A stretch of DNA of 61,900 nt, from the NCBI GenBank assembly GCA_020724865.1, contig DYGA01000003.1, positions 1 to 61,900 on the forward strand, given 5' to 3'. The DNA comes from Candidatus Paceibacter sp. Its GTDB lineage: Bacteria; Patescibacteriota; Patescibacteriia; S139-126. The notes under the pieces are model-generated. The model was not told the DNA's origin, searched no databases, and saw nothing but the letters and a program-made list of their open reading frames with translations. The position numbers and the translations under genes are program-made. Position 1 is the stretch's first letter. Every line of letters begins with the position of its first letter. Positions 1,358-50,851 of the stretch are shown here, in pieces.

Positions 1358-1717
1358 ATGAGGAGAGAGAGTGCTAATTTTGACCTTGAAGAAAGGACAG
1401 CTAAGTTTGGTGAAGATGTATTAAAATTTTTAAAAGAAATAAAAATAACATTAAAAAATCAGTCAATTGTTCAGCAGCTTATAAAATCAGCAACTTCTAT
1501 AGGTGCTAACTATATGGAGGCATCAGGTGCAGAGTCAAAAAAAGACTTGAAACACAAAATAAGTATATGTAAAAAAGAAACCAGAGAAACAAAACATTGG
1601 CTCAGAATGATAGCTATTTTGCACTCTGATAGGAAAGCGCCAATAAAAATACTATGGCAAGAAGCACATGAACTTACTTTAATATTTTGTAAGATTATAA
1701 GAACTTGTAAAAATTAA
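1358..1717 (+). CDS. Four-helix-bundle protein (TIGR02436 / 23S rRNA intervening-sequence protein family, Avd-like)
   Basis: The 119-aa product carries the family core SATSIGANYMEASGAESKKDLKHKISICKKETRETKHWLRM. The gene is bracketed by inverted AAATTATAAATTT-type arms. Confidence 0.85.
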   Translation: MRRESANFDLEERTAKFGEDVLKFLKEIKITLKNQSIVQQLIKSATSIGANYMEASGAESKKDLKHKISICKKETRETKHWLRMIAILHSDRKAPIKILWQEAHELTLIFCKIIRTCKN

Positions 1718-1761: not shown

Positions 1762-3954
1762 ATGTCCCAAAACACCTTAAAACGAATCATCCAAATAGGT
1801 CTGGCAGCAGTGCTGTTTGTCCCCATCCTGATCAGTGGCAAATTTTTGTTTCCTTATATTCATCTCAAAAACGCTTCATTTCGTGTGATAGTCACAGTTT
1901 TATTGGTATTGGCAATCTGGTATTTGTGGCGGCAAGGTCAGATTTATGGCAAGAAAAATTATGTATTGTATTCTTTTGCAGGTTTGTTTTTGATTGAAGT
2001 TATTGCCGGGGTGTTTGGGGTAAATCCATACAACAGTTTTTGGAGCAATTATGAACGGATGGACGGGATAGTTTTATTTTTTCATTTACTTGTTTTTTTG
2101 TGGTTACTGATACAATTTTTTCAAACCAGAGAAGAGTGGTTGTGGCTTTTGCGTTCGTCACTGGTAGTGGCTTTGATTTTGTCTATTTACGGACTTTTAC
2201 AGCGGGCCGGAGTTAGTAATGCTTGGATTTTGCCCAATGATGCTCCCCGCATTGCCTCAACCATTGGCAATCCGGCCTATTTTGGCGGGTATTTGTTGTT
2301 CCATGTATTTTTTTCTGGGATTTTACTTTATTTAGATAGGGTTAAGTGGCGCCAAGTGATTTATGCTTTGGGCATAATATTTTTTACCTATATGATGTAT
2401 ACTACTGGCACCAGAGGCCCTTTTTTGGGTTTTATTTTTGGTTTGGGAGTGATGGGGGTGATGTATTTCAAACACGCCAGTAAAAATTTAAAAGTCGGCA
2501 TAGCTATTGGGTTGTTGTTGATTCCTTTGTCAGGATTATTTTTGTATTCACAGCGCAATTCTGAATGGCTAAAAAATTATTCTACTTTTCACCGTATTGC
2601 CAATATCAATTTGAAAGATTTGACTACCATTGATCGTATCAATACTTATGTCACTTCTTGGCATGCTTATACTGACAGACCATTGCTTGGTTATGGGCCG
2701 GAAAATTATCGTTATGGTTTCAATAAATACTACAATCCCGAATTGCATGAGCAGTGGTTTGATCGAGCCCACAGTGTAATTTTTGACTATCTAAATTTGG
2801 GCGGTCCTTTGGCGTTGCTATTTTATTTAGCACTGTTAGGATCAGCAGTATATTATCTGTGGCAGGCAAGAAGAGATGATTATTTTTTGAGTGTGTTATT
2901 AATTGGTTTGATTTCGGCTTATTTTTTCCAAAATTTATTTGTGTTTGATTCATTGAATACATATTTGCCGTTGTTGGTGACATTAGCTATGTCGGCTTGG
3001 TTGTATAAGCGGCAGAAAAATGAAGTTTGGACTTTGCCGGCAAGTGTGCAGTCACTAATGATGCCGATATTGGGTTTGGCAGTAGTTTTGGTTGTATTTA
3101 GTAATTATTTTATTGTGATCAAACCCGCTCGAGCCAATTTGACTGCTATTGAAGCTTTCCGTTATACGCAAGCAGATCCCGCTAAATCTTTGGAACTTTT
3201 CCAGCAAGCTATAGATATGAACACTTATGGTAGCAGAGAAATAATGTTACAATTGAACAATTTTGCTTCACAAATTGCGCGCGATCAAAAACAAACTGCA
3301 GAGTTCAGAAAAAAAGTATTTGATGTTAATCGGCGTTATGCCTTATCTCATTTAGAAAAAGATCCAGCTGATATTCAATTTCGTATGCTGCTGGCAAATA
3401 CTTATCTCAACTACGCTGTGATTGATGGAACTTATTTACAAAAAACCGTTGATTTATTGGAACCGCATATTGTTGATTCGCCGGATCGATTGGAACTTTA
3501 TTTTACTTTGGTACAGGCTTATTTGGGGATGAACAATTTAGATAAGGCCGGTCAATATGCGAAAACTGCATTTGCCAAAACGCAAAACAAACCTTCAGTT
3601 TATTTGAATCTCATGAATTATTATGCCGCCGTCCGCGATCAAGAAAATTTTACTCGTCTAGCTGATGAATATGAAGTTAAATTTGATTTGGGATTTGCCG
3701 ACTGGCAGCAGTTGTCAGAGTTTTATTATAATGTTGGTTTATACGACCGCGCTGAGCGAATTTTGCGGGACAAAATCATTAGCCAAGATCCTAACAATTT
3801 ACAAAATTATGCCGGACTAGTAGCAGTTTTACGCGCTCAAGGTAGGTTGGATGAGGCTATAGCGCTATTAAATGAATTAAAAATCGCCTTTCCATCTGCT
3901 GCCCAAGATATTGAGAGTTATAAGAAGCAGTTGGAAGGAGAGAGGGATCAATAA
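1762..3954 (+). CDS. O-antigen ligase/Wzy_C-like polytopic membrane protein with a C-terminal TPR domain
   Basis: About 12 TM segments include a GTRGPFLGFIFGLGV loop region typical of O-antigen ligase-like proteins. The C-terminal ~270 aa are soluble and TPR-like. Confidence 0.75.
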   Translation: MSQNTLKRIIQIGLAAVLFVPILISGKFLFPYIHLKNASFRVIVTVLLVLAIWYLWRQGQIYGKKNYVLYSFAGLFLIEVIAGVFGVNPYNSFWSNYERMDGIVLFFHLLVFLWLLIQFFQTREEWLWLLRSSLVVALILSIYGLLQRAGVSNAWILPNDAPRIASTIGNPAYFGGYLLFHVFFSGILLYLDRVKWRQVIYALGIIFFTYMMYTTGTRGPFLGFIFGLGVMGVMYFKHASKNLKVGIAIGLLLIPLSGLFLYSQRNSEWLKNYSTFHRIANINLKDLTTIDRINTYVTSWHAYTDRPLLGYGPENYRYGFNKYYNPELHEQWFDRAHSVIFDYLNLGGPLALLFYLALLGSAVYYLWQARRDDYFLSVLLIGLISAYFFQNLFVFDSLNTYLPLLVTLAMSAWLYKRQKNEVWTLPASVQSLMMPILGLAVVLVVFSNYFIVIKPARANLTAIEAFRYTQADPAKSLELFQQAIDMNTYGSREIMLQLNNFASQIARDQKQTAEFRKKVFDVNRRYALSHLEKDPADIQFRMLLANTYLNYAVIDGTYLQKTVDLLEPHIVDSPDRLELYFTLVQAYLGMNNLDKAGQYAKTAFAKTQNKPSVYLNLMNYYAAVRDQENFTRLADEYEVKFDLGFADWQQLSEFYYNVGLYDRAERILRDKIISQDPNNLQNYAGLVAVLRAQGRLDEAIALLNELKIAFPSAAQDIESYKKQLEGERDQ

Positions 3955-4052
3955 TTACTAATAACTAATTTCTAATTACTAATGAATTACTAATTAATTA
4001 ATTTATTAAATTAAAACATTGATTAGTTATTCGTAATTAGTAATTAATAATT
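3955..4052. repeat. Imperfect palindromic spacer, word family TTACTAAT | ATTAGTAA
   Basis: TTACTAATAACTAATTTCTAATTACTAATGAATTACTAATTAATTAA ... ATTGATTAGTTATTCGTAATTAGTAATTAATAATT. The tract starts directly after the stop codon at 3952-3954. Confidence 0.55.
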
Positions 4053-4218
4053 GACCAAAAAGTTATCCACTTGTCATCTAGAAGAATGTTTTTATAATAA
4101 AAATAAAGATAAATAATACTAGAAAGGAGGAAAATTAGTTAAAAGTTTATCTTGTTGAATTGTACCGCACCATCAGTGGCGGGTTTAACAAGAATTAAAA
4201 TTTGTAAAGTTAAAATCT

Positions 4219-4323
4219 TTGTCATGCTGAACTTGGTTCAGCATCTAAAAATAGACCATGAAACAAGTTCAGGGTGACAAAGATAAGTTCAGAGTGACAA
4301 AAGTAGATAAGTCCAGGGTGAGA
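4219..4323. repeat. Hairpin-module repeat, locus A
   Basis: GTC-ATGCTGAAC-TTG-GTTCAGCAT-C forms a perfect 9-bp hairpin at 4224-4244. Three tandem degenerate AAGTTCAGGGTGACAAAG units follow (4258-4323). Confidence 0.6.
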
Positions 4324-4443: not shown

Positions 4444-4527
4444 GAAAAAGTTATTTCGATTTTATTGATTAGTTTTGTTTATAACTCTTAGGGGAGAGGA
4501 ACGCCGCGCTGCAGCACGGCGTTTTTT
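4444..4527 (+). ncRNA. Candidate small RNA (about 84 nt) between an extended -10 promoter and a strong terminator
   Basis: TGGTATAAT (TGn + TATAAT, 4429-4437) lies about 7 nt upstream. There is no ATG/GTG ORF in the interval, and it ends at the 4500-4527 terminator. Internal 5' hairpin CGAAA-AAGTTA-TTTCG. The 5' end is inferred only. Confidence 0.4.
4500..4527 (+). terminator. Rho-independent terminator
   Basis: AACGCCGCGC-TGCA-GCACGGCGTT forms a 9-bp stem with one mismatch, followed by TTTTTT (4522-4527). Confidence 0.8.
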
Positions 4528-4555
4528 GATACAAAAAAACAGACCAAGGCCTGAA

Positions 4556-4650
4556 ATTACTAATGATTAATAACTAGTAACTAATCAATGATTTAATTTA
4601 AAAATTAATTAATTAGAAACTCATTAGTAATTATAAATTAGTAATTAATA
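4556..4650. repeat. Imperfect palindromic spacer, word family TTACTAAT | ATTAGTAA
   Basis: ATTACTAATGATTAATAACTAGTAACTAATCAATGATTT ... AATTAGAAACTCATTAGTAATTATAAATTAGTAATTAATAATT. The tract abuts the stop codon of the GT4 gene. Confidence 0.5.
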
Positions 4651-4651
4651 A

Positions 4652-5785
4652 TTAATTGAAGTATATTTCCTTAGTTTTATTTATCATGTTGGCTATGTCA
4701 ATTTGTTTTCTCACTCGATCAAGTTGTTTTTGTTCTAGAGGAGTTTGATTTATAAGTTCAGAGATAGCTTGAATCAAGGCATTGGTATCATTTGACTCTA
4801 CCAACCGATAGTGGGTTTGCGGATAAAATTCCAGCATTTCAAAAATACCTCCTACCCGGGTAGCAACAATTGGCAGTCCTTGAGCCATTGCTTCCAATAA
4901 AGTATAAGGTAAACCTTCCTTGACTGATGGTAAAACAAAAACATTGAAAGCGGAAATAAATTTTTTAGCTCCTTGAATACTGCCTAACAAAAATACTTTG
5001 TTAGTTAATTTTTTTTGTTTAATCATGTCTTGTAAATAATTTTTTTCTGGCCCCTCGCCGATAATGGTAAAAATTGTGTCAGAGTTTGTTTTAACAATTT
5101 GTTCGGCAGCAGTAATAAGTGCCGGGAGGTTTTTGGTGGGGTAGAGGTTGGCTATTGAGCCGATGATATAATTGTTTGTTGTAATTGCTATGTTGGAGGT
5201 AAAATTCGCCAGTTTTTCTCGGGCTGATTGTTGGGAAAGATTGTCTGAATTATTTATATCAATACCGTTGTGGATAGTAACAATTTTATCCATAGGGAAT
5301 TTGTTGAGTCTGGCGGCTGAACGATCGTATTCGGATACGCAAATAACTTTGTTTTTATATTTGGCAGAAAGCTTTTCTGCCCACAAATAAATTTTTTTCG
5401 CAATATCAGACAATGGTTCCAAAAACACCCAACCGTGGGCAGTGTAGATAACTTTTTTATTTAAACCCCAAGCCGCTAGGGATCCCAAAATGCTAATTTT
5501 ACTACTGTTTAAGTGGATGATATCAGGGTTTAGTTTTTTGATCAGTTTTCTGATTGCAAAAATTGCCGCCAGGTCATAATGAGGTAAAATTGAACGTTTT
5601 ACATATTTTAGCTCATACCAAGGTATGCCGGCATCTTTTAGTTTCAAAGGCAGCCAATCAGTGTTGATACCTCCCGAGGCAACAGAAATATCAAATTCAG
5701 TTTGCAAATGAGTGGCCAAATCCAAAACATAAGCTTGGGCGCCGCCCGCTTCGGGTAAAGTGATTAGATAGAGAATTTTTTGCAT
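4652..5785 (-). CDS. Glycosyltransferase family 4 (GT-B, Glycos_transf_1)
   Basis: The 377-aa product has an N-terminal GGAQAYV motif and the C-terminal EX7E region PSVKEGLPYTLLEAMAQGLPIVATRVGG. Confidence 0.85.
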   Translation of the reverse strand: MQKILYLITLPEAGGAQAYVLDLATHLQTEFDISVASGGINTDWLPLKLKDAGIPWYELKYVKRSILPHYDLAAIFAIRKLIKKLNPDIIHLNSSKISILGSLAAWGLNKKVIYTAHGWVFLEPLSDIAKKIYLWAEKLSAKYKNKVICVSEYDRSAARLNKFPMDKIVTIHNGIDINNSDNLSQQSAREKLANFTSNIAITTNNYIIGSIANLYPTKNLPALITAAEQIVKTNSDTIFTIIGEGPEKNYLQDMIKQKKLTNKVFLLGSIQGAKKFISAFNVFVLPSVKEGLPYTLLEAMAQGLPIVATRVGGIFEMLEFYPQTHYRLVESNDTNALIQAISELINQTPLEQKQLDRVRKQIDIANMINKTKEIYFN

Positions 5786-5805
5786 AGCAAAAAAAGACTT
5801 ATGAT

Positions 5806-6201
5806 TTATGAGGTATGATTTAAGAATTCTTTTGTTTTTGTTAGAAACCCTTGCAGTAGAGCATGTGTAACATTTGCTTGTTCTACTAACGATTTTAAAT
5901 TTGTTTCATTTAAATAACCAACATCTTTAGCAATCAATATTTGGTCTTTCAATTCAGTTAGAGAACCTTGGGCTTGATAATAAAAACGTAGTTTATCTTT
6001 ATAACCTTGTCTACCAAATCCTTCAGCGATATTACTGGTTACGGAGCTAGATGACCTTCTCATCTGATCAACCAATGAATAAGTTTCTTCTTTAGGAAAA
6101 TTTTTGGTTATAGAAAATATTAATATGACTAGTTTATGTCCTTCCTGCCAAACTTTTAAATCAGTAAAAGATTTTATTTTATTGTTTTCTGAATTATTCA
6201 T
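5806..6201 (-). CDS. Four-helix-bundle protein (TIGR02436 / 23S rRNA IVS protein family)
   Basis: SFTDLKVWQEGHKLVILIFSITKNFPKEETYSLVDQMRRSSSSVTSNIAEGFGRQGYKDKLRFYYQAQGSLTEL is the textbook family signature. The gene is wedged between two GT genes with about 20-nt inverted flanks. Confidence 0.9.
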   Translation of the reverse strand: MNNSENNKIKSFTDLKVWQEGHKLVILIFSITKNFPKEETYSLVDQMRRSSSSVTSNIAEGFGRQGYKDKLRFYYQAQGSLTELKDQILIAKDVGYLNETNLKSLVEQANVTHALLQGFLTKTKEFLNHTS

Positions 6202-6220
6202 AAATCTTAAATCATAAATC

Positions 6221-6997
6221 TTATTTACTAATTATTAATTTTTTAACCAAGTATCTCGCTGTTCTTCGCGCATATGCCCCCAAAAATCCAGGATAATCTC
6301 GTCGGTATTTTACCACCAATCTAATATTCATTTTCATCATAGCAAGTAATTTTTTTTTGGTCACGTTGGTTTCGTGTTTCCGATATTTTGTAAAATAATC
6401 TGGTAAATTTGCTATTTTCCACATCACGGCCATACGTAACCATAGATCATAATCTTCCAAAAAAGGTAAAGATTCATCATAACCTTTTAAGTGGGCAATT
6501 CCTGCCGTTCGCATCAAAACACTGGAATGGGCTAGGGGGTTTTTGTAAAGAATTGTTTTTTTGATTTGTTTAGAATCTGTGGGATTTTGGTATCTGCTTA
6601 TTTCTTTACCTTCGGTATCAATTACAATTACGCCAGTGCCTACCACCGCACAATCTGTATGAGTATTTAAATATTCAATTTGTTTTTTCAATTTTTCTTT
6701 ATCTGCCCATAAGTCATCACTATCAAGAATTGCCAAAAATTCACCTCGCGCTGCTTTTAATCCTTGATTGCGGGCGGCGCTAATCCCAGGATCATTTACA
6801 TTTTTTATATACACAAATCTTTTGTCGTCTGCTGCCAATTCGCCAATTATTTTGGCAGTAGTTTCATAGTCACCATTATCCACCACGATCAATTCCCAAT
6901 CAGTGACGGTTTGGTTTAATACAGATTGAATCATCTCGGGAAGGAATTTTTCCCGTCCTTGGTGGGTAAGGGTGATGATGGATACTTTTGGAATCAT
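6221..6997 (-). CDS. Glycosyltransferase family 2
   Basis: VSIITLTHQG...NQTVTDWELIVVDNG and the DSDD motif (LAILDSDDLW) are typical of GT-A/GT2 enzymes. Confidence 0.85.
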   Translation of the reverse strand: MIPKVSIITLTHQGREKFLPEMIQSVLNQTVTDWELIVVDNGDYETTAKIIGELAADDKRFVYIKNVNDPGISAARNQGLKAARGEFLAILDSDDLWADKEKLKKQIEYLNTHTDCAVVGTGVIVIDTEGKEISRYQNPTDSKQIKKTILYKNPLAHSSVLMRTAGIAHLKGYDESLPFLEDYDLWLRMAVMWKIANLPDYFTKYRKHETNVTKKKLLAMMKMNIRLVVKYRRDYPGFLGAYARRTARYLVKKLIISK

Positions 6998-7071
6998 TCA
7001 AAAAGATTTAGGATTTAAGATTTAGGATTTAAGAATGATTTTCATAAATCATAAATATCATACTTCATAAA
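6998..7071. repeat. Imperfect palindromic spacer, words GATTTAGGATTTAAG | CATAAATCATAAAT
   Basis: AGATTTAGGATTTAAGATTTAGGATTTAAGAATGATTTT faces CATAAATCATAAATATCATACTTCATAAATCAT. It fills the whole gap between two co-directional GT genes. Confidence 0.45.
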
Positions 7072-7911
7072 TCATATAGTTTGCCAATCTTTAGGTAGTA
7101 AGTCGCGATAGTGCTGCTGATATTTATTGTTCCATTTTTTGGGAGCAATGACAATTTTGTTTTGATTTTGATTTATGTAAGCCGCCCACCAAGAAAAAGT
7201 GCTGTTGGCAATTATTTGGTGTTGACATTGACTCATCAATATCAGTTCTTGGGCAGAATCACTGTTTTTTTCAGCTGCTACATAAATGGTTGGTTTATCG
7301 GTAATTAAATTTTTTTGTGCCCAAGCAATATCATCAGAAAAAACAAAATAAACCGGATTGCTAAGTTTATTCTTTATTAAATCCAAAGCTTGCTGATAAT
7401 AATTTATATCTATTGTCTGATGAATTGATTTAATTTTTTGGTTATAAGCAAAATCTCCGCGTCGGATATGAACTGCTACTGATTGATTAGATATTATTTG
7501 GTTACTGATATTTTGGTAATAATTATCCAGCGGTTTTTTTAAAGTGATTTCAGTAAGTAATTTATCTCGGATTGGATCTAGGTATTTATAGGATTGGAAA
7601 TAACCTTCAAAATAATGTCTTTTACTAGAAAGCAAAGAGGGGATATAGCCAATATTAAATTGCCGGAAAAGTTTTTGTTTGATAAATCTGGCATATGGTG
7701 GGGGAGTATATTTTTTTAGCTCATCTGGGGTGGCAATATCTGCTTGGATGTTGAATTTAGACAAATCAAAGTCACGTTTAGTGTCTTTGCCTTTCCCCAA
7801 AGCTGAAATATCCAATTTTAGTTGTTCATTTCTTTGTGTAGTCAAAAGTCTGCCAAATCCGTATTGGAATAGTTGATTGCCTAGGCCCCCTTTTAGTTTG
7901 ATGATTATCAT
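7072..7911 (-). CDS. Alpha-1,2-fucosyltransferase (GT11 family)
   Basis: The N-terminal LKGGLGNQLFQYGFG, HIRRGDF and FSDD motifs are the GT11 (FutC/WbsJ-like) signatures. Confidence 0.8.
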   Translation of the reverse strand: MIIIKLKGGLGNQLFQYGFGRLLTTQRNEQLKLDISALGKGKDTKRDFDLSKFNIQADIATPDELKKYTPPPYARFIKQKLFRQFNIGYIPSLLSSKRHYFEGYFQSYKYLDPIRDKLLTEITLKKPLDNYYQNISNQIISNQSVAVHIRRGDFAYNQKIKSIHQTIDINYYQQALDLIKNKLSNPVYFVFSDDIAWAQKNLITDKPTIYVAAEKNSDSAQELILMSQCQHQIIANSTFSWWAAYINQNQNKIVIAPKKWNNKYQQHYRDLLPKDWQTI

Positions 7912-7928
7912 TTAATTATTTATTTTTT

Positions 7929-8139
7929 TGTCATCCAGACGTGTCATCCTGAATTTATTTCAGGATCTATTTTAGATTCCGAAACAAGTTCGTAATGACA
8001 TTTATATTTTATTATCATTCTGACTTGCTTGTCACGTCACTCTGATTTATTTATCTTTGTCACCCTGATTCGTTTGTTTATGTAATCCTGAATTTATTTC
8101 AGGATCTATTTTAGATTCCGAAACAAGTTCGGAATGACA
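7929..8139. repeat. Hairpin-module repeat, locus B (two direct 59-nt units plus an inverted middle segment)
   Basis: Units 7942-8000 and 8081-8139 differ at 2 of 59 positions. Each holds ATCCTGAA-TTTAT-TTCAGGAT and ATTCCGAA-ACAAG-TTCGGAAT hairpins. Sites 8055-8068 and 8036-8045 are exact reverse complements of 4269-4282 and 4289-4298. Confidence 0.7.
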
Positions 8140-8180
8140 ATTATTTAAATCATAAATCTTACTTCTTCAATCATACTTTT

Positions 8181-18549: not shown

Positions 18550-19486
18550 TATAATAAGGATTTTCTATATTTATAATTTCACAAATTTTGATTAGTTCAT
18601 CAATGCCTTGTTCCATAGATATAGTATTGTGAAAACCTAAATTGTGTATTTTGTCATAAGAAACCATATAATCACGCTGATCTAAATCGTGACCAACATC
18701 AGCAAAGTGTAAATAATAATCAACCTTTTCTTTAATCATTAAACAAATTTGTTCTTTACTATAATTCATTTTATTATCACCGACATTGTAAACCTCACCG
18801 TTCATTTTTTCATAATTTTCTAAAGCAAATATAAATGCTTTCCCCATGTCACGTACATGAATAAATGTACGCATAAAATGTTTTTCATAGACAATTAGAG
18901 TTTTTTCTTTTACAGCTTTGTAGGTGAAATCATTTGGCAATAGATCAAATCTCATTCTAGGAGAGATGCCAAAAGCCGTAGCAAAGCGATAAATAACAAA
19001 CTGTTCATTGGTTTTTATAATATTTTCTGCTTCTACTTTTTGTTCCGCGTAGTTACTTAAAGGATTTAACGGTGTTGTTTCCGTGCAGTATTTTTCAATC
19101 AGTTTTCCGTATGTACTACCAGTAGAAGCAAAAAGTATAGGAATTTTTTTATTTACACAATCAACTAAATTTTTTGTACCATTTACATTTATGTCTCGTG
19201 ACAGTTCTGGTTCTTTGCGGCAGGCGGGATAACCAACAATTGCCGCCAGATGAATAATAGCGTCTATTCCATTTAGAGCTTGGGTGACATTTTCCTTGCT
19301 TCTTACATCACCTTTAATAAAAGTAAAATTTGGATTACCAAAAAAATGCATAATACTTTGCGGACCCCAACGTAAAGTATCAAGGATAGTTACTTTGTAA
19401 CCTTGTTGTAATAGCATTTCTGTGAGGGGAGTACCTACATAACCAGCTCCACCCGTGATAAGAATATGGTTAAATTTTTTTGTCAT
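18542..19486 (-). CDS. NAD-dependent epimerase/dehydratase (extended SDR)
   Basis: ILITGGAGYVGTPL Rossmann motif, STGSTYG, catalytic YAEQK. Confidence 0.75.
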   Translation of the reverse strand: MTKKFNHILITGGAGYVGTPLTEMLLQQGYKVTILDTLRWGPQSIMHFFGNPNFTFIKGDVRSKENVTQALNGIDAIIHLAAIVGYPACRKEPELSRDINVNGTKNLVDCVNKKIPILFASTGSTYGKLIEKYCTETTPLNPLSNYAEQKVEAENIIKTNEQFVIYRFATAFGISPRMRFDLLPNDFTYKAVKEKTLIVYEKHFMRTFIHVRDMGKAFIFALENYEKMNGEVYNVGDNKMNYSKEQICLMIKEKVDYYLHFADVGHDLDQRDYMVSYDKIHNLGFHNTISMEQGIDELIKICEIINIENPYYNA

Positions 19487-22872: not shown

Positions 22873-22912
22873 AATATTTTATGTTGAATAAAAACTAGGA
22901 ATTAAGAATAAT

Positions 22913-23010
22913 GATTAATTACTATTTATTAATAACTAATGAATTTTTAATTGTTTAATTAAAAATTTAATCATTGATTAGTAATTAGAAATTCGTTATT
23001 AGTAATTAAT
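22913..23010. repeat. Imperfect palindromic spacer, word family TTACTAAT | ATTAGTAA
   Basis: GATTAATTACTATTTATTAATAACTAATGAATTT ... AATCATTGATTAGTAATTAGAAATTCGTTATTAGTAATTAAT. Confidence 0.45.
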
Positions 23011-23231
23011 TTATATTTTTATTATAATTTAGGTGTCATTGGGTGTCAATAGAGACCAAAATGAGTCAAAAATACCCAAATTATAAATTATAAAATGTAA
23101 ATTTTAAGTTAATTTATTAATTATTTAATTTTAAAATTCTATAATTCATTTATAATTGATAATTTAAAATTTAAAATTAATTTCAAGGTTTGCTTTTTTA
23201 ACATCCAAAATATAGAATAAAAATATAATTT

Positions 23232-24557
23232 ATGGGAAACTTTTGGTTAAAAACAAGAAATTGGTTTTTGCTCTTGGGTGATGTTTTACTACTTTACTCA
23301 AGCTTAGCTTTGGCTTTGTTTATTCGTTATCGGGAACAGTTTTTTTCCGCTTGGTGGCTGCACTTTGTTCCATTTACTCTGATTTTTTGGTTGTGGGTAA
23401 TAATTTTTTATATCAGCGGTTTTTATGATTTGCGGCGGGCTCGCAATCAGGCGCAATTTTTTATTCAGTTGCTACTTATAATATCACTGGCTGGTCTTGT
23501 TGGTATGGCGGTTTTTTATCTGTGGCCGTCTTTAGGAATTTCCCCCAAAACCAATTTAGCCCTGACTTTACTATTGGCTACTATATTTTTGTTTTTATGG
23601 AGACTAATTTTCAATGCTTTAATTTCTCAACCGCAAAGGAAAATATTATTAATCGGCGAACATACTCAAAGCATTGAGCTGGCCACCCAGCTCAATAACC
23701 ATCCGCAGTGGGGTTATCAGGTGGCGGCTATAATCACTCCGGAGAAGTTTTTTGAGTATAAAGATAAATTAAATAGTTTGGGAATTTCCACTTTGGTAAT
23801 TTCTGACGATCTGTATCAAACTCAAGCTTTGACCGATGCTTTGTATGACAGCTTATCATCACGGGTAGAAATGTTTACTTTGACTAAATTTTACGAACAA
23901 TTGGTAAAAAAAATTCCTTTGTCAGTGATTTCCAAAGTTTGGTTTTTGGAAAATTTGACCGAAAGAGATAAGCTGGCTTTTGATAAAATTAAAAGGTTGA
24001 TAGATATAGTTTTGAGTTTATTGGGATTGGTTTTGACTTTACCTTTTTATCCTTTACTTTATTTGGCGGTAAAAATTGATTCGCCGGGTCCATTTTTCTA
24101 TACTCAAGTGCGATTAGGAAAATTGGGCAAGCCGTTTGTAATTGTGAAAATCAGATCTATGGTTCAAGATGCCGAAAAAAAAGGCGCTGAGTGGGCAATA
24201 CCGGGAGATGTCCGGGTGACTAGAGTGGGAAAATTTTTCCGCAAAATCCGTTTGGATGAACTTCCGCAATTATTTAATATCTTATGGGGAGATATGAGTT
24301 TTGTTGGCCCGCGGCCTGAGCGGCCTGAATTTATTAGTCAACTTGAACAAGAAATTCCTTATTATAAACAACGTTTATTGGTTAAACCCGGACTTACAGG
24401 TTGGGCACAAGTCAATTTTAAATACTCATCTGATGTGGCTGGAGCTTTGGAAAAATTACAATTGGATCTCTATTATATAAAAAATCGGTCTCTGTTTTTG
24501 GATCTCACCATCTTACTCAAAACCGTAAGTATGGTTTTAAAAGGAGGAGGACATTAG
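23232..24557 (+). CDS. Polyprenyl-phosphate glycosyl-1-phosphate transferase (bacterial sugar transferase, WbaP/EpsL-like)
   Basis: The C-terminal domain KRLIDIVLSLLGLVLTLPF...PGPFFYTQVRLGKLGKPFVIVKIRSM...DELPQLFNILWGDMSFVGPRPERPEF is the PF02397 signature. The N-terminus has 4-5 TM segments. Confidence 0.85.
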   Translation: MGNFWLKTRNWFLLLGDVLLLYSSLALALFIRYREQFFSAWWLHFVPFTLIFWLWVIIFYISGFYDLRRARNQAQFFIQLLLIISLAGLVGMAVFYLWPSLGISPKTNLALTLLLATIFLFLWRLIFNALISQPQRKILLIGEHTQSIELATQLNNHPQWGYQVAAIITPEKFFEYKDKLNSLGISTLVISDDLYQTQALTDALYDSLSSRVEMFTLTKFYEQLVKKIPLSVISKVWFLENLTERDKLAFDKIKRLIDIVLSLLGLVLTLPFYPLLYLAVKIDSPGPFFYTQVRLGKLGKPFVIVKIRSMVQDAEKKGAEWAIPGDVRVTRVGKFFRKIRLDELPQLFNILWGDMSFVGPRPERPEFISQLEQEIPYYKQRLLVKPGLTGWAQVNFKYSSDVAGALEKLQLDLYYIKNRSLFLDLTILLKTVSMVLKGGGH

Positions 24558-24684
24558 AAATTATAAATTTTAAATTATAAATTATAAAAAAATAAAGAAT
24601 TATAGAATAATTTATAATTTTAAATTTTATATTTTTATTTAAAATTAAAATATTGTATAATAATCTTACTAAATTAATCATTTG

Positions 24685-26898
24685 ATGAAAAAAACTTTAC
24701 ATATTTTTCTTGGGTTGATAGTCACGTTGGGCGTGATGAATTTTTTTGTTATACGGACCAAGGCCAGTGCAGTTGAAATAAACAAATCAAGTACTTCCGA
24801 AGTTATAGTAAAAATGAAACACAGCGATAAACTTTATAAACTATCAGCTGCTCAGGGTATTGATACAGAATATTTGTTGGCTAATTATAATTTAAATTCA
24901 CAAATTGAATACGTAGAACCAAATTTTAAATTTTCTGCCGCTGTCACCACTCCCAATGACCCGGATTTTATTCAACAGTATTATTTAGGCCAAGTGCAGG
25001 CGCAAGCTGGGTGGGATATTTCTACTGGACGACCAGAAATTGTTGTGGCAGTTTTGGATAGTGGTGTGGATATTGATAATCTTGATTTGAAACACAATAT
25101 TTGGGTCAATGTTCATGAAAAACCATTTGATCTCATAGACAATGACGGCAATGGCAAAGTTGATGATTTTTATGGATGGAATTTTGTTGATGACAATAAC
25201 GATGTTAAACCAAGTTTTATAAATTTTACTGAATTAGGAGTAAATCACGGAACAATCGTTGCTGGTATTTTAGGAGCCAGAGGGAACAATGGTATCGGTA
25301 TAACTGGCGCGGCTTGGCAGATTAAAATTATGCCGTTGAAAGTTTTAGATAGTTCTGGCATGGGAGATTCACTGACTTTAGTGCGGGCAATTGATTATGC
25401 TATTAGTAAAAAAGTTGATGTGATCAATTTATCAGTGGTGGGGCATAGTTATAGTCAGGCCTTGCAGGATGCAATTTCCCGGGCATGGCAAGCAGGTATT
25501 GTGATTGTAGCGGCAGCTGGCAATGAAGTGGGTTTAGGTCAAAACATGGATATTTATCCAGCTTATCCAGTCTGTAACGATGGTGAAGATAATATGGTAT
25601 TAGGGGTAGTAGCTCTTGATCGTTATAGTCGTCTGGCCAGTTTTTCCAATTTTGGCAGTCGTTGTAGTGACGTATCAGCGCCGGGAGTAAATTTTTATTC
25701 TACGGTTGCTTATCATGAGTCTTTTCCTGGTTTTAATCATTATTATAAAGCTGGTTTTTCTGGAACTTCAGTAGCCACACCTTTGGTATCTGCTTTGGCG
25801 GCGTTGATTAAATCAGTAAATCCCAGTTTAACCAATATTCAGATACGCAATATTATTTTAAATACTGCCAGTGATGTTGATTTTTTGAATCCAAATTATA
25901 AAGGTAAATTGGGGAGTGGTTTAGTTGATTTTGGTAAAGCTTTGGGAGCGGCTAAGGCCACTTTGTCTGGTACTAGCCAGCCTATTAGCCAGGATTGGTT
26001 GGTAGTGGGCGCAGGACCCGGCGGCAGTCCGCATGTAAGAATTTTTGACTGGCAAGGCAATGTTTTAGCCCAGTGGTTTGCTTATGATGAAAAATTTAGG
26101 GGCGGGGTAAATGTGGCTGCCGGCGATGTTAATGGTGATGGTAAAAAAGATATAATTACTGCGCCTGGCGCGGGCGGTGGACCTCATATCAGAATCTTCG
26201 ATCATCAAGGCAATGTTTTAGCCCAGTGGTTTGCTTATGATGAAAAATTTAGGGGCGGGGTAAATGTGGCTGCCGGTGATATTGATAATGACGGTTTAGC
26301 AGAAATTATAGTTGCTCCCGCCAGTGGTATGGAAACTTTGGTAAAAATTTTTGATTTTACCGGACATATGCGTTTTAAGTTTTTAGCTTATGCGGATAAT
26401 TTTACAGGTGGCGCCAGTCTGGCGGTTGGCGATGTTGATGGCGACTCGCAAGCAGATATTGTGACTGGAGCAGGTTTTGGGGGCGGTCCGCATGTTCGTA
26501 TATTTAATCGCCAAGGTCAAATTAAACAGCAGTGGTTTGCTTATGATGCCAAGTTTCGGGGCGGGGTAAATGTGGCTGTTGGTAATTTGTCTGGTGATAT
26601 AAATAAAGAAATAGTTACCACTCCTGGACCGGGCGGTGGTCCGCACACACGGGTGTTTAACTGGCAGGGTAAAGTTCAAGCCCAGTGGTTTGCATACGAA
26701 CCAGAAAATCGAACTGGACTAAAAGTTGCAGTTGGGGACATGACCGGAGACGGTAAAAATGAAGTGCTCGTGGCTTTGCAAAAAGGGTCAAGTCCAAATG
26801 TGCGGATATTTAATTCCAATTATCAACTAAGCAAAGAATTGGTCGTTTTTCCCCCAGCTTTTATTGGTGGAGTTAATTTGCAAATTTTAGGTAGATAG
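24685..26898 (+). CDS. Secreted subtilisin-like serine protease (S8) with a C-terminal array of six FG-GAP-type repeats
   Basis: Signal peptide MKKTLHIFLGLIVTLGVMNFFVIRTKASA. Catalytic D (VAVLDSGVD), H (HGTIVAGIL) and S (GTSVATPLV). Six ~51-aa repeats (GGGPHxRIFxxQG..QWFAYD..FRGGVNVAAGDxxGDG). The track ORF starts at TTG 24682; I prefer ATG 24685. Confidence 0.85.
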   Translation: MKKTLHIFLGLIVTLGVMNFFVIRTKASAVEINKSSTSEVIVKMKHSDKLYKLSAAQGIDTEYLLANYNLNSQIEYVEPNFKFSAAVTTPNDPDFIQQYYLGQVQAQAGWDISTGRPEIVVAVLDSGVDIDNLDLKHNIWVNVHEKPFDLIDNDGNGKVDDFYGWNFVDDNNDVKPSFINFTELGVNHGTIVAGILGARGNNGIGITGAAWQIKIMPLKVLDSSGMGDSLTLVRAIDYAISKKVDVINLSVVGHSYSQALQDAISRAWQAGIVIVAAAGNEVGLGQNMDIYPAYPVCNDGEDNMVLGVVALDRYSRLASFSNFGSRCSDVSAPGVNFYSTVAYHESFPGFNHYYKAGFSGTSVATPLVSALAALIKSVNPSLTNIQIRNIILNTASDVDFLNPNYKGKLGSGLVDFGKALGAAKATLSGTSQPISQDWLVVGAGPGGSPHVRIFDWQGNVLAQWFAYDEKFRGGVNVAAGDVNGDGKKDIITAPGAGGGPHIRIFDHQGNVLAQWFAYDEKFRGGVNVAAGDIDNDGLAEIIVAPASGMETLVKIFDFTGHMRFKFLAYADNFTGGASLAVGDVDGDSQADIVTGAGFGGGPHVRIFNRQGQIKQQWFAYDAKFRGGVNVAVGNLSGDINKEIVTTPGPGGGPHTRVFNWQGKVQAQWFAYEPENRTGLKVAVGDMTGDGKNEVLVALQKGSSPNVRIFNSNYQLSKELVVFPPAFIGGVNLQILGR

Positions 26899-27390: not shown

Positions 27391-27406
27391 GCATATAATT
27401 AAAGTC

Positions 27407-27610
27407 AATTATTAATTACTAATAACTAATTACTATTTAATTAATCAATTAATAATACCTTGTTATACTGAACTTGGTTCAGCATCTACAACGAGATCCC
27501 GAAACAAGTTCGGGATGACAAAGATAAACAAGTTCGGGATGACAAATGAAAGTTTAAAATTTGTTAATTAGAAAATTCATTAGTTATTAATAATTAGTAA
27601 TTAGTTATTT
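27407..27610. repeat. Composite element: TTACTAAT arm, hairpin-module core (locus C), ATTAGTAA arm
   Basis: Left arm 27407-27457 and right arm 27561-27610 are inverted versions of one word family. The core 27466-27547 holds TACTGAAC-TTG-GTTCAGCA and ATCCCGAA-ACAAG-TTCGGGAT-GACAAAG, plus a half unit AAACAAGTTCGGGATGACAAATG. Confidence 0.6.
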
Positions 27611-28333
27611 ATGATCTTAGTTATCCCAGCGAAAAATGAAGAATACAGAATTGGACCTACTTTGCAGGCTTATTTAGATTGGTTTGATAATTTAAAAATA
27701 GTAGTGGTGATAACCCCGGGGACTGACAATACCGAAAGTGTCATTAAAAGTTATCAAACTAAATATCAGGGGAAAATAGACTATTTTTTATTGGAAAAAT
27801 TTATAGGTAATAGTAAAGGTAAAGCAATTAGAGCTGGTTTAAAATATGCTTTGGAAAATTATCCCACCGAAAATTTGATTGGTTTTGTAGATGCCGATAA
27901 TTCTTTGGAACCTTCCGAATTTAATAAATTGGTAAAAAATATTTCTAAAGCTGATTTGACTATTGCCTCGCGGTATTTACCAGATTCAGTTTTGACTGAC
28001 CGAGATTCAAATTTACGAGTATTGGCCTCATTGTTGTTTCGTTATTTAGTCAAAATTTTGTTTAGGTTGAAAGTGGCAGATACTCAGTGTGGCGGGAAGT
28101 TGTTTAAAAGGGGCGTGGTTGAAGAAATTTTGCCAAGATTAAAAATTGATGATATGGCTATTGATGTAGAAATTTTGTATTACTGCCAAAAACTGAATAA
28201 AGTTATTAAAGAAATTTCTGTGGTGTGGCGGGAAAAAAAAGCATCAACAATTTCAACTTCGCCAATACAATTTATCAAAACCAGTTGGCAGATGTTTAAA
28301 TCACTGATTAGGTTAAAAGTTAAAAGTTTATAA
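27611..28333 (+). CDS. GT2 polyprenyl-phosphate glycosyltransferase (GtrB/dolichyl-phosphate glucosyltransferase-like)
   Basis: LVIPAKNEEYRIGPTLQAY, FVDADNS (DxD) and a QCGGKLF segment. It pairs with the upstream gtrA-like gene. Confidence 0.8.
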   Translation: MILVIPAKNEEYRIGPTLQAYLDWFDNLKIVVVITPGTDNTESVIKSYQTKYQGKIDYFLLEKFIGNSKGKAIRAGLKYALENYPTENLIGFVDADNSLEPSEFNKLVKNISKADLTIASRYLPDSVLTDRDSNLRVLASLLFRYLVKILFRLKVADTQCGGKLFKRGVVEEILPRLKIDDMAIDVEILYYCQKLNKVIKEISVVWREKKASTISTSPIQFIKTSWQMFKSLIRLKVKSL

Positions 28334-28470: not shown

Positions 28471-28539
28471 TTTAGGATTGAGTGTTTCGTGTTTAGTATT
28501 TTTTTTATAATTTAAAAATTTTTTGTATCTTGTTTGTGC

Positions 28540-28600
28540 ATCTTAAATTAGATCTTGAAATAAAATCAGGATGACAACCAAGATGACACCAGATGATAAT
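28540..28600. repeat. Degenerate hairpin-module repeat, locus D
   Basis: AAATCAGGATGACAACCAAGATGACACCAGATGATAAT holds tandem decayed ...CAGGATGACA-type tails like those at loci A-C, without intact hairpins. Confidence 0.35.
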
Positions 28601-38270: not shown

Positions 38271-38325
38271 ATTTTACCCTGTTAAATTGATTTTTGATCA
38301 GAGTAAAAATTTAACAGGGTAAAAT
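38271..38325. repeat. Perfect 18-bp inverted repeat (hairpin) upstream of dnaJ
   Basis: ATTTTACCCTGTTAAATT (38271-38288) pairs with AATTTAACAGGGTAAAAT (38308-38325), with a 19-nt loop. No T-run follows. Confidence 0.8.
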
Positions 38326-38388
38326 ATTATAATTATTAATTATTAATAAAATAAATATTAGTAATTAATAATTGCTAACCAATCAATT

Positions 38389-39512: not shown

Positions 39513-40247
39513 ATGAAAATAATACCTGTTCATTCTCGTATTTTACAACCGCCGCAGGATGATTTGTTGGCGGTTTTATCTTCATTGCCAATCAAAAATC
39601 AAGATATATTGGTTATTACTTCGAAAGTAGTCAGCATTCACCAAGGCAGATGTGTAAAAATAGATGAAAGTAGGAAAGAACAACAAAAGCAAGAATTAAT
39701 CCTGCAAGAGGCCGAGGCAATAGTCCCTCTGACAGCAACTGGCAATTTAAAACAATCTCCTCTAACTAAAAAATATGGTGTCGTGGTTGGCAGTTCTGGT
39801 ATAGACGAATCAAATGGTCATGGTTATTTTATCTTGTGGCCAGTTGATTTAGCTAAATGGGTTAAAGATATATACCAGTGGTTAAAAGCTACTTATAATT
39901 TAACAGATTTAGGAATTATTATTTCCGATACTGTTAAGCGGCCATTTAGGCGAGGCGCTATTGGTATAGCCATTGCTCATTATGGTTTTAAAGCTTTGCG
40001 TAGTTATCGAGGCTCAAAAGATATTTTTGGGAGAAAATTTAAAAATGAACAGGTTAATTTAGCTGATGCTCTGGCGGCCAGTGCGGTTATGGTTATGGGA
40101 GAAGGGGGTGAACAAACACCTTTGGCTATTATTTCTGATTTAAAAAATATAGAATTTTTTCCTGGAACTGAGGAAATTACAGTGGCAGGCGAAGATGATT
40201 ATTTTGCTGGTTTGATTGATAATAATAAATGGAAGAAAAGAAGTTAG
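39513..40247 (+). CDS. CofE-like (F420-0:gamma-glutamyl ligase family) protein
   Basis: ITSKVVSIHQGRCV, GSSGIDESNG and VMVMGEGGEQTPLAI resemble the PF01996 family. Function in this organism is unknown. Confidence 0.5.
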   Translation: MKIIPVHSRILQPPQDDLLAVLSSLPIKNQDILVITSKVVSIHQGRCVKIDESRKEQQKQELILQEAEAIVPLTATGNLKQSPLTKKYGVVVGSSGIDESNGHGYFILWPVDLAKWVKDIYQWLKATYNLTDLGIIISDTVKRPFRRGAIGIAIAHYGFKALRSYRGSKDIFGRKFKNEQVNLADALAASAVMVMGEGGEQTPLAIISDLKNIEFFPGTEEITVAGEDDYFAGLIDNNKWKKRS

Positions 40248-40355
40248 TAATTTTGAATTTTAAATTATAAATTTTAAATTAATTTTAAATTTTAGTAACT
40301 AGTAATTTATTATTAATTCTTTATTCTTTAAAGCAAAAGGTGTTATAATTATATT

Positions 40356-43693: not shown

Positions 43694-44686
43694 ATGAAGA
43701 AATTTGATTGTTTAGTAATTGGCGGGTCAACCGAAGATTTGATGTTTTATACTGATGAATCGGTGATAATAAAAAACCCCAATGCTAAAGATATTACCAG
43801 ACAAAAGTTAATTGCTTTTGAGTACGGTGCAAAGATTCCTTCACAAGCCGCTTATTTTACTATGGGCGGAGGAGGACAAAATGTTGCTGTGTCTTTAGCT
43901 AAATTGGGATTGAAAGTCAGCTTACTTACAGCTGTTGGTGGCGATGGTGTTAGTCAGGAAATTATACAGAATTTAAAAATAAATGGCGTTGATCAAAGTT
44001 TGGTAAAAGTTTATCCCAAAGATCGTTCCAGTTTTTCTTTTATTGTTAATACCGGTACTTTCAAGGAGCATGTAATTTTTACTTATCGCGGAGCAAATTA
44101 TGTCATGCAAATAAATCTGTCTGATTTAAAAAAAATAAAAACCAATTGGTTTTATTTAACTTCTTTACAAGGTGATTATTGGAAGAGTAATTTACAAAAT
44201 ATTTTTAAAGTGGTAAGTGCCAATAATATTAAAATTTCTTGGAATCCGGGCGGCACACAATTGGCCAGCGGTTACAAATATTTGAGCAGGTATTTGAAAC
44301 AGACTGAAATTTTACATCTCAATAAAGATGAAGCCATAGAATTAGTTTTGTCTTATGGTAAAAAAGTTAACAATATTGAAAAATTATTACTGACTATCAA
44401 AGCTTGGGGCCCGCAGTTGGTGGTGATTACTGACGGACCGAACGGCGCTTATGCTTTTGATGGTAAAAAAATATATTATCGCAGAGCTCCCAACACTAAA
44501 GGTATAAATACCACGGGCGCCGGGGATAGTTTTTGTTCAGCTTTTGTTTGGGGGATTATAAAATATAATGATATTAGACTGGCTTTGCAAGCTGGAATTA
44601 TCAATAGCAATAGTGTCATTACTGAAATTGGCGCTCAAAATGGTTTATTGACCAGTAAACAAATAAAAAAAGAATTAAAATTATGA
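43694..44686 (+). CDS. PfkB-family carbohydrate kinase (ribokinase-like)
   Basis: GGGGQNVAVSLAKLG near the N-terminus and the C-terminal TTGAGDSF motif. Confidence 0.8.
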   Translation: MKKFDCLVIGGSTEDLMFYTDESVIIKNPNAKDITRQKLIAFEYGAKIPSQAAYFTMGGGGQNVAVSLAKLGLKVSLLTAVGGDGVSQEIIQNLKINGVDQSLVKVYPKDRSSFSFIVNTGTFKEHVIFTYRGANYVMQINLSDLKKIKTNWFYLTSLQGDYWKSNLQNIFKVVSANNIKISWNPGGTQLASGYKYLSRYLKQTEILHLNKDEAIELVLSYGKKVNNIEKLLLTIKAWGPQLVVITDGPNGAYAFDGKKIYYRRAPNTKGINTTGAGDSFCSAFVWGIIKYNDIRLALQAGIINSNSVITEIGAQNGLLTSKQIKKELKL

Positions 44687-45264: not shown

Positions 45265-45272
45265 ATTTTAAA

Positions 45273-50450: not shown

Positions 50451-50472
50451 AGGCAGGGCTTTTGATAAAATT

Positions 50473-50851
50473 GCTAAATAAATCTATAAGCCGAATTCTG
50501 TTTTCCGCCGTTAGGCGGAACGATAGTCATCTATCTGGTTTTAGTGTTACCACTAAAATCTAGCTACCAACCCGTCTGCTTTTAGAGCAGAACCTATTTG
50601 GTATTGCACCGGTTAGAGTTTGCCTCTTTTCCCATATCACTATGGGAACGCGTAAATTAGTTAATTTACGATTTCACCCTTATTCCGCAAAAGCGGAAAG
50701 GAATACTTTCTGTTGCACTTGTCCTGACTTTATTGTCACCAATAAAGTCGGTCGGCGTTACCGATTAACCACCCGAAAAAGTCGGGCCGCTGTGGTGTTC
50801 GGACTTTCCTCCCAGCTAATATAAGCTGAGCGACTATCTAATTTATTTAGC
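50473..50851 (-). ncRNA. rnpB: RNase P RNA, bacterial type A
   Basis: The reverse complement contains GGGAGGAAAGTCCGAACACCACAG, GGTAACGCC, AGTGCAACAGAAAG, AAGGGTGAAA and ACAGAATTCGGCTTATAG in canonical order. P1 pairs GCTAAATAAATT (5') with AGATTTATTTAGC (3'). A promoter places +1 at 50851. Confidence 0.9.

Follow-up and report, generated by a model that had tools for sequence, protein, structure and literature searches.

What is the short hairpin that recurs between genes in the DNA of Candidatus Paceibacter sp., does it belong to a described family, and which protein might recognize it? The stretch analysed here, called the window, comprises 61,900 nucleotides (nt) of contig DYGA01000003.1. 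In the 152-kb JGI contig Ga0246236_1000050, its first base is position 23. An earlier note, made from this sequence alone, had described dispersed hairpins in it that resemble repetitive extragenic palindromes (REPs) or miniature inverted-repeat transposable elements (MITEs), with compensatory changes in their stems. The window contains nine copies of one 25-nt hairpin at four intergenic loci. These are very probably members of a family known both as CGTC/TGTC-tagged REPs and as Ssn-related motifs (SRMs), whose type is the NTS or dRS3 repeat of Neisseria.

One oriented unit in two orientations

The nine copies lie at 4219-4323, 7929-8139, 27460-27547 and 28516-28600 (loci A to D; individual copies are numbered in Table 1). 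The unit is oriented and reads 5'-(T)GTCAY / 8-bp stem A-Y-B-C-Y-G-A-A / 5-nt loop / T-T-C-R-G-V-R-T / C-3'. Its unpaired parts are the 5' tag, (T)GTC, and the C directly after the stem, which itself starts with A-T and ends with G-A-A. All four loci lie between open reading frames, as the earlier note had said, and the neighbouring genes are convergent or co-directional.

The same note had divided the repeats into two modules, X and Y. Module Y is the reverse complement of module X, and the two are one oriented unit in two orientations. The sequences quoted for the modules are right: 4224-4244 is ATGCTGAACTTGGTTCAGCAT, 7946-7966 and 8085-8105 are ATCCTGAATTTATTTCAGGAT, 27496-27516 is ATCCCGAAACAAGTTCGGGAT and 8115-8135 is ATTCCGAAACAAGTTCGGAAT. 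Tails following module Y had also been seen correctly, and positions 8055-8068 and 8036-8045 are indeed exact reverse complements of 4269-4282 and 4289-4298. In fact, these tails are truncated copies of the tag and 5' arm, directly 5' of a full unit and on the same strand.

Every dimer in the window is a convergent pair with its GTCAY tags outward and 7-9 nt between the units. Because the pairs are inverted with tags outside, each DNA strand bears one correctly oriented unit. The partners of a dimer differ in stem or loop. The dimer of A1 and A2, with an 8-nt spacer, folds as one long hairpin (-21.9 kcal/mol, z-score -8.6). As single-stranded DNA (ssDNA), six of the nine copies fold with -6.2 to -7.9 kcal/mol (z -3.6 to -5.0), and the remaining three have a stem mismatch or are decayed. 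The tag is intact in seven copies, as GTCAT or GTCAC (TGTC), and is changed to GTAAT (TGTA) in B3 and GTTAT (TGTT) in C1. The C directly 3' of the stem is present in all nine, and five copies combine a perfect hairpin with an intact tag.

Short motifs in an AT-rich genome (about 32% GC) might be chance matches without true relatedness, an explanation that can be given next to no credence here. In the window, GAAACAAGTTC has 8 matches with at most one mismatch, versus 1.5 expected, and none of 100 shuffles reaches 8. A scan of one genome per prokaryotic species with the pattern GAAACAAGTTCNNNRTGACA finds at least 120 loci. From the information content of the pattern and the size of the collection, about 140 chance matches are expected overall, and the test was therefore moved to the free part of the pattern. 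Among the matches listed, NNN is complemented exactly by the three bases before GAA in 129 of 150, versus 1/64 by chance. The 841 kb of listed loci contain 209 perfect hairpins, with stems CCT, GCT, CCC, TCC, TCT and GCC; 169 are closed by T:A and 37 by C:G, and in only 3 is the closing position unpaired.

Compensatory change can be followed in 147 distinct aligned copies, which represent more than 12 phyla, come from other genomes only and have a 3' arm that the search never constrained. In this alignment 97.1% of stem cells pair, and changes on both sides occur at four of the five variable pairs, in 130 cells. None of 500 shuffles is as good, and neither a shuffle nor a slid register comes close. 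The dispersed family with compensatory stem changes is thus confirmed. Of the 147 copies, 141 have A:T as pair 1; at pair 2, 124 have T:A and 15 have C:G. Loops of 5 nt are found in 219 of 220 copies at the 120 loci listed. The search left column 30 of the alignment free, and yet this C next to the stem reaches at least 90% conservation; it is followed by a base that is mostly T and a variable third base. Selection on the hairpin rather than on the sequence, as the earlier note put it, is therefore correct in its first half only, since sequence is conserved too, in the tag, at the GAA/TTC top of the stem and at the C that follows it.

A covariance model, R1, was trained on the 147 foreign copies alone. 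It gives nine oriented matches in the window, only at the four loci, eight of them with E 1.9e-11 to 5e-4 and the one at locus D with E 0.053. The shuffles, E-values down to 2e-11, the covariation and hundreds of homologous copies elsewhere all argue against chance.

Among the matches listed, the hosts named in the records are Bacteroidota, Ignavibacteriota, Rhodothermales, Treponema, Melainabacteria, Nitrospirota, Nitrospinota and Elusimicrobia. Further hosts are many Patescibacteria, Alpha- and Gammaproteobacteria, Caldiserica, a few metagenome-assembled genomes (MAGs) of Firmicutes and one Nanoarchaeota MAG. In viral contigs (IMG/VR) there are 58 matches, of which 47 have a perfect stem, and one gene resembles ssn. 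Phages or prophages may carry the hairpin, with the proviso that IMG/VR contigs can include host flanks.

The abundance of the hairpin has practical effects. Where contigs of four metagenomes were aligned at the window copies, assemblies break at the hairpins and foreign copies pile up to a depth of about 3,200, which makes the presence or absence of copies in strains uninformative. The hairpin breaks assemblies and gives rise to spurious small open reading frames in Bacteroidota, Ignavibacteriota, Spirochaetota, Melainabacteria, Nitrospirota, Patescibacteria and others.

General resources do not name the repeat. At the gathering threshold of Rfam only RNase P passes in the window. At permissive thresholds the loci give only weak matches to miRNA precursors (E 0.15-7), which score as generic hairpins. 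A full-text literature search with literal sequence words returns only primers and unrelated matches.

A described family and its likely GIY-YIG partner

Hairpins of this design have been described twice. The CGTC-tagged REPs (Di Nocera 2013, PMC3733652) have a tag that is often TGTC (also CCTC), stems of 8-9 bp starting with A-T, and loops of 4-5 nt. Their dimers are mainly tags-outside (HH), and heterodimers predominate among the group CGTC-2. They are found in Proteobacteria, Chlorobi, Bacteroidetes, Spirochaetes and Thermotogae, and correspond to dRS3 of Neisseria and to RPE-4 and RPE-6 of Rickettsia. No gene for a REP-associated tyrosine transposase (RAYT) or other transposase was flanked by CGTC repeats, and no dedicated enzyme was found (PMC3733652).

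The family of the window shares with CGTC-2 the CGTC/TGTC tag, the 8-bp stem from A-T pairs, the 5-nt loop, mostly heterodimeric HH dimers, the absence of a RAYT, and hosts among Bacteroidetes, Chlorobi, Spirochaetes and Proteobacteria. It differs in the 3' tail, where CGTC-2 has the consensus CCA and the window family has C and then mostly T. A Sulfurovum CGTC-2 insert in the supplement of the same paper reads RHSELVSGS (PMC3733652). This peptide is the translation of CGTCATTCTGAACTTGTTTCAGGATCT, the GAA/TTC hairpin itself. The geometry matches and, together with this one translated example, points to an assignment to CGTC-2. The example also agrees with a remark in the earlier note that similar hairpins in other phyla are translated as spurious small open reading frames: copies are present in many phyla, and those inside genes are translated.

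The second description comes from Neisseria, where the NTS, CGTCATTCCCGCGMAVGCGGGAATCYRG, was generalised to Ssn-related motifs (Chenal 2025, PMC11893778). The NTS pattern is CGTCAT-TCCCGCG-MAV-GCGGGA-ATC-YRG. SsnA is a single-domain GIY-YIG protein of 94 amino acids (aa; CDD cd10448), and its gene typically lies between two inverted motifs, an NTS-ssnA-NTS arrangement that the authors liken to an insertion sequence. Motifs are near the gene in 71% of ssnA homologues and flank it in 42%. For SsnA to bind, the hairpin must be ssDNA and in one particular orientation, and the cut falls a few nucleotides 5' of the motif; cutting is governed by the three bases before the palindrome and binding by the C after it. 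It cuts split hairpins, tolerates loop extensions, and is inactive on double-stranded DNA and RNA. In N. meningitidis, the pair of SsnA and motif lowers the integration of incoming transforming ssDNA that carries the motif. The paper (PMC11893778) does not cite PMC3733652 and mentions neither Bacteroidetes nor Patescibacteria.

The two literatures can be joined here: the CGTC-REPs were left without an enzyme in 2013, and the Ssn nuclease of 2025 supplies one. The earlier note could name no described family, but both papers describe one, and as a discovery in its own right the repeat is not novel.

Like the NTS, the unit of the window has the oriented frame of GTCAT, imperfect palindrome and ATC, and is intergenic, high in copy number and clustered around surface-structure genes. 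Both are associated with a single-domain GIY-YIG gene of about 90 aa between inverted motifs, which for the GAA subtype is seen in other genomes. The general features of SRMs, a hairpin-forming imperfect palindrome of 20-50 nt with GTCAT 5' and C 3', are present in the window copies, and the variant NTSvar (CGTCATACTCGGGNNNNNCCCGAGTATC) resembles their 5-nt-loop geometry. Canonical NTS-like copies occur together with the GAA type at four loci (L009, L060, L065 and L078). Unlike the NTS, the window copies have an AT-richer stem (AYBCYGAA/TTCRGVRT), a TGTC rather than CGTC tag, and a host from the Patescibacteria, a group that PMC11893778 leaves unmentioned.

Evidence for the protein partner is provided by all-versus-all clustering of open reading frames over the 120 hairpin loci listed. 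The only recurrent family adjoining the hairpins is a small GIY-YIG protein of 91-105 aa, which matches Pfam GIY-YIG with E 3e-15 to 4e-13; its only solved relative is the UPF0213 protein 1zg2 (E 1e-5). In L114, L113 and L098 the gene lies exactly between an upstream GTCAY...RTC hairpin and an inverted downstream one. Two further loci have the upstream side only, and there the contig ends. L072 has an upstream hairpin. In L016, from Kerfeldbacteria of the candidate phyla radiation (CPR), the GIY-YIG start codon follows a full hairpin at a distance of 21 nt, with two truncated arms also ahead of it. Several phyla, the CPR among them, thus have GAA/TTC hairpins next to genes of this kind.

In the reverse test, a protein database was searched with two GIY-YIG proteins and the DNA around six distinct matches was examined. 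Tagged hairpins stand on both sides in five of the six. Four are of the GAA/TTC type (L127 from Formosa, L139, L144 and L140), and L148, from Ignavibacteria, has a different hairpin with the same tags on both sides of the GIY-YIG gene. The hairpin-GIY-YIG-hairpin unit occupies the short spacer between carA and carB in L139 (1001-1273) and between cydA and cydB in L144 (1001-1264), and thus has been inserted inside conserved operons. A TGTCATCCTGAACTTGTTTCAGGATCT-type ssDNA hairpin is the predicted substrate of hairpin-flanked GIY-YIG proteins such as those of L139, L144 and L016.

The dimers of the 120 loci connect these units with the window. Their geometry is tags-outside in 61, tags-inside in 21 and tandem in 9. 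Spacers form a series from 6 to 415 nt, in which those of 281-415 nt contain the gene, and the window dimers, with 7-9 nt, are the gene-less end of this continuous series. They would be non-autonomous, MITE-like derivatives or targets of an Ssn element.

The partner gene also bears on whether the copies are REPIN-type elements moved by a REP-associated tyrosine (HUH/Y1) transposase, one of the enzymes that the earlier note had suggested looking for. The likeness to REP/REPIN-RAYT systems is considerable: a short palindrome with an unpaired tag, inverted dimers that can fold as one long hairpin, intergenic position, gene-less derivatives of a hairpin-flanked gene and recognition of ssDNA hairpins. 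Such an origin is nevertheless very improbable. The tag is (T)GTC rather than the GTAG of REPs, the associated enzyme is a GIY-YIG ssDNA nuclease instead of an HUH/Y1 protein, being the only recurrent gene family next to the hairpins, and no RAYT or other transposase gene is flanked by CGTC repeats (PMC3733652). REPs are, moreover, lineage-specific, whereas a near-identical hairpin is found here over more than 12 phyla.

IS200/IS605 elements and PATEs similarly have a small gene between subterminal hairpins, ssDNA-specific recognition and insertion in intergenic spacers. Ssn units differ from them in having neither Y1 TnpA nor TnpB; they are not known to have a defined cleavage tetranucleotide or to form a circular intermediate, and their transposition is hypothetical.

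Several points weigh against identifying the window copies with a working Ssn system. The published SRM string, HGTCWYN(0-2)YYVSBRHN(0-5)WNVSBRGN(0-2)RNCYNB, has 0 matches on either strand of the window, where the stem is too AT-rich, and matches the NTS as positive control. A search with three GIY-YIG proteins (tblastn) finds no such gene in the window, and 17 kb of added flanks contain none either, 79 kb being covered, so a cognate nuclease in this genome would be hypothetical, and the subtype is only a putative cleavage site. The GIY-YIG neighbours are Ssn-like and putative members of cd10448. One set of GIY-YIG loci (L121-125) is without flanking hairpins. With the mutated tags and stems (GTAAT, GTTAT, mismatches) and the decay of locus D, some copies may be inert relics. 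Finally, mobility by Ssn is hypothetical, and the transformation phenotype of Neisseria may not transfer to CPR bacteria.

A possible nuclease gene was met in the source metagenome (run X1), where a comparison with L016 1071-1106 finds a 366-nt ssn-like contig at depth 381, versus 89.7 for the genome of the window. Its GIY motif reads LYI-TGA-VTNN, with TGA at the expected glycine. Its source may be an organism that uses code 25 (Gracilibacteria/SR1-type), or else it may be a pseudogene; the contig is not assignable to the organism of the window.

Three things are new beyond both papers: the Patescibacteria host, the subtype outside the SRM string, and the truncated 5'-arm copies on the tag side. 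A large subtype with AT-richer stems escapes the published string. The Ssn system is therefore more widespread than had been estimated, and its range includes the tiny genomes of the CPR. For the window alone, the result is an ordinary repeat family. For genome annotation, a hairpin that litters intergenic DNA gains a name and a likely protein partner.

Other hairpin types with the GTCAT...ATC / GAT...ATGAC frame flank GIY-YIG genes or adjoin GAA-type copies, at L038 (about 3300-3990), L148 (about 970-1500) and in the flanks of L019, L023 and L078; examples are GTCATTCTGAACGCAGTGAAGAATC and GATTGCTTCGCTCCACTCGCAATGACA. They suggest a larger superfamily with several stem classes.

Turnover, decay and possible roles

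Judged by DnaK, the best named relatives of the window's organism are Komeilibacteria, with identities of up to 80%. A closer relative, with a DnaK 90% identical to that of the window's organism (L202, CAZUKA010000001.1), shares synteny with the window over the segment between the S8 peptidase and acetate kinase. By R1, its spacer between GtrA and the glycosyltransferase gene GT2 has no copy, where the window has locus C. Its GT2-HlyD spacer has an intact dimer (46.8 and 38.9 bits), where locus D of the window is decayed. An extra dimer lies in a 113-nt spacer between pfkB and the next gene; the same genes overlap by 4 nt in the window (44683-44686) and in L203 (9622-9625). Copies therefore come and go among close relatives, being gained and lost on the time scale that separates them from the organism of the window. 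When metagenomes were scanned for relatives of the GT2 gene that loci C and D enclose, only homologues of 27-28% identity came up, and no orthologous spacers. The equivalent of the locus C spacer in L202 carries different short periodic repeats.

This turnover bears on the idea that the window copies are inert relics: an Ssn element would once have invaded the genome, its cognate nuclease and any present function would since have been lost, and its traces would be decaying. The idea draws on the lack of an ssn gene in 79 kb, the tag mutations of B3 and C1, the stem mismatches of A2, B2 and C1, the decay of locus D, and the proposal that the CGTC families are possibly heading for extinction (PMC3733652). 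As an account of all copies it is unlikely. Five perfect hairpins have intact tags, and gain and loss between genomes related at roughly 90% implies recent activity. The two 59-nt units of locus B (7942-8000 and 8081-8139) differ, as the earlier note had counted, at only 2 positions, which points to recent duplication. The search for the nuclease gene covered roughly one tenth of a CPR genome of typical size.

Truncated copies of the tag and 5' arm are found on one side of full units far more often than on the other: 29 stand 5' and 6 stand 3', or 16 versus 5 with a stricter arm pattern. The reverse-complement control is symmetric (19 versus 22). The period is mostly 20-24 nt, and 9-19 nt of the prefix are conserved. 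The favoured side is the one on which SsnA cuts (PMC11893778). The truncated arms may be footprints of nicking and repair, products of slippage, or half-sites that compete to pair with the one 3' arm left intact; relevant to the last idea, SsnA cuts split hairpins and tolerates loop extensions (PMC11893778).

Hairpins between genes may also act at the RNA level, as transcription terminators or as stabilisers of mRNA 3' ends, which has been proposed for E. coli REPs. The intergenic position between convergent or co-directional genes would suit this, and B1 and B3 are flagged as terminator-like, with the hairpin followed by CTATTTTAGA. As the main role it is improbable, though a side effect of this kind could exist alongside another role. 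The flags of B1 and B3 are on the + strand, and both neighbouring genes are on the - strand; most copies have no T-run; and a true GC-rich terminator is present separately at 4506-4522. A terminator role would also leave unexplained why phyla that differ in their transcription machinery all conserve the tag, the loop and the top of the stem. Since SsnA neither binds nor acts on RNA (PMC11893778), RNA processing at the hairpins, which the earlier note had proposed to look for, is not expected. Classical GC-rich hairpins with T-runs stand apart from the SRM hairpins in the intergenic region of locus A, at 4506-4522 (+) and 4553-4540 (-).

If the copies are Ssn-related motifs, a role on ssDNA can be proposed. 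When replication or DNA uptake exposes single strands, either strand of a dimer would be nicked at its outer edge. Between loci A and B lie four genes (4652-7911), encoding GT4, a small four-helix bundle, GT2 and a GT11 fucosyltransferase, and between loci C and D lies one GT2 gene (27611-28333). Because the dimers bracket glycosyltransferase cassettes, they may gate or promote the recombinational exchange of these cassettes. In Neisseria a motif-gene-motif layout lowers transformation, and the A/B and C/D loci share this layout. Gating of surface-glycan cassette exchange would be plausible.

A bolder proposal goes further and is only tentative, being rather doubtful as a whole. The GAA/TTC hairpin-ssn-hairpin unit would be a true mobile element, in which the GIY-YIG nuclease drives an ssDNA-based spread across phyla. 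The window dimers would be its MITEs, the 5'-arm stutters would be footprints of Ssn nicking and mis-repair or half-sites, and the dimers would control the exchange of glycosyltransferase cassettes through DNA uptake. The insertions in carAB and cydAB, the gain and loss in CPR bacteria and the one-sided truncated copies are material on whether a GIY-YIG nuclease can mobilise DNA.

Coordinates and other features of the window

Table 1. Hairpin copies and truncated arms in the window, with the dimers of the relative L202. Bits and E-values are those of covariance model R1; energies and z-scores are for folds as ssDNA.
Feature	Position	Strand	Description
SRM hairpin A1	4216..4249	+	TGTCAT-GCTGAAC-TTG-GTTCAGC-ATC, 9-bp stem, 3-nt loop; 41.4 bits, E 8.7e-9; -7.9 kcal/mol, z -4.9
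SRM hairpin A2	4250..4283	-	TGTCAC-CCTGAA-CTTGT-TTCATG-GTC, one stem mismatch; 38.6 bits, E 5e-8; module Y of the earlier note
Two truncated 5'-arm copies	4279..4322	-	GTCACTCTGAACTTATCTTT and CTCACCCTGGACTTATCTACTTTT; directly 5' of the A2 tag; period 20-24 nt, 14-nt prefix match
Truncated 5'-arm copy	7930..7942	+	GTCATCCAGACGT; 5' of B1
SRM hairpin B1	7938..7971	+	GTCAT-CCTGAA-TTTAT-TTCAGG-ATC; 32.5 bits, E 2.4e-6; z -4.7
SRM hairpin B2	7971..8004	-	GTCAT-TACGAA-CTTGT-TTCGGA-ATC, one mismatch; dimer partner of B1; 43.7 bits, E 2e-9
Two truncated 5'-arm copies	8036..8081	+	GTCACTCTGATTTATTTATCTTT and GTCACCCTGATTCGTTTGTTTAT; 5' of B3; the reverse-complement tails of the earlier note
SRM hairpin B3	8077..8110	+	tag mutated to GTAAT; 23.9 bits, E 5e-4; z -5.0
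SRM hairpin B4	8110..8143	-	GTCAT-TCCGAA-CTTGT-TTCGGA-ATC; dimer partner of B3; 50.7 bits, E 2.6e-11
SRM hairpin C1	27457..27490	+	tag GTTAT, one stem mismatch; 24.3 bits, E 4e-4
SRM hairpin C2	27491..27524	-	GTCAT-CCCGAA-CTTGT-TTCGGG-ATC; dimer partner of C1; 51.2 bits, E 1.9e-11; z -4.3
Truncated copy	27520..27543	-	GTCATCCCGAACTTGTTTATCTTT; 5' of the C2 tag; 19-nt prefix, without 3' arm
Locus D, decayed dimer	28516..28600		best remnant on the minus strand, 28547-28580 (GTCATCCTGATTTTATTTCAAGATC), then ATGACA-type remnants; 16.5 bits, E 0.053; no stable fold; 63% alike to locus A
L202 dimers	2644-2709 and 18662-18729 (in L202)		R1 model

Other identities for the hairpins were tried and rejected. 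Hammerhead and other ribozymes lack support, the conserved core being absent and Rfam empty. Integron attC sites have a different flank consensus, the spacing is too irregular for CRISPR, and ARAGORN finds no match for tRNA-like stem-loops. A resemblance to relaxase nic sites or the phiX origin (ATCCTG, AACTTG) is coincidental, since the stems vary.

Read outward, the tag (GTGACA/ATGACA) resembles a -35 hexamer. Promoter-like matches lie at 8035-8006 (-) and 7934-7907 (-), with GTGACA-18-TAAAAT matching at 10 of 12 positions, and the second is just upstream of the gene starting at 7911. The total number of promoter-like sites is not above that in shuffles.

A second, AT-rich repeat family with a period of about 7 nt (TAATTAC TAATAAC TAATT...) is found at 3952-4063, 4555-4657, 22910-23013, 27404-27456, 27548-27615 and 38323-38388. 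It is inverted around locus A (3952-4014 versus 4592-4654, 86% complementary) and around locus C (27407-27455 versus 27561-27609, 76%).

The motif TTTTAAATTATAAATTTTAAAT is repeated at 1288-1345, 23066-23191, 24546-24653, 40236-40293 and 45230-45287. Its copies are just upstream of gene starts at 1358, 23232, 24682, 40356 and 45273, and it may serve this lineage as a promoter or UP-like element.

The glycan cluster includes two genes of PF05635 (23S_rRNA_IVP four-helix bundle), at 1358-1717 (+) and 5806-6201 (-), one of them with a weak bAvd match. The S8 peptidase gene has three internal direct repeats of 179 nt with 73% identity (26008-26645), which correspond to its FG-GAP repeats. DUF4012 is also present, and a bacterial RNase P RNA of class A lies at 50471-50849 (-), with 214.6 bits.

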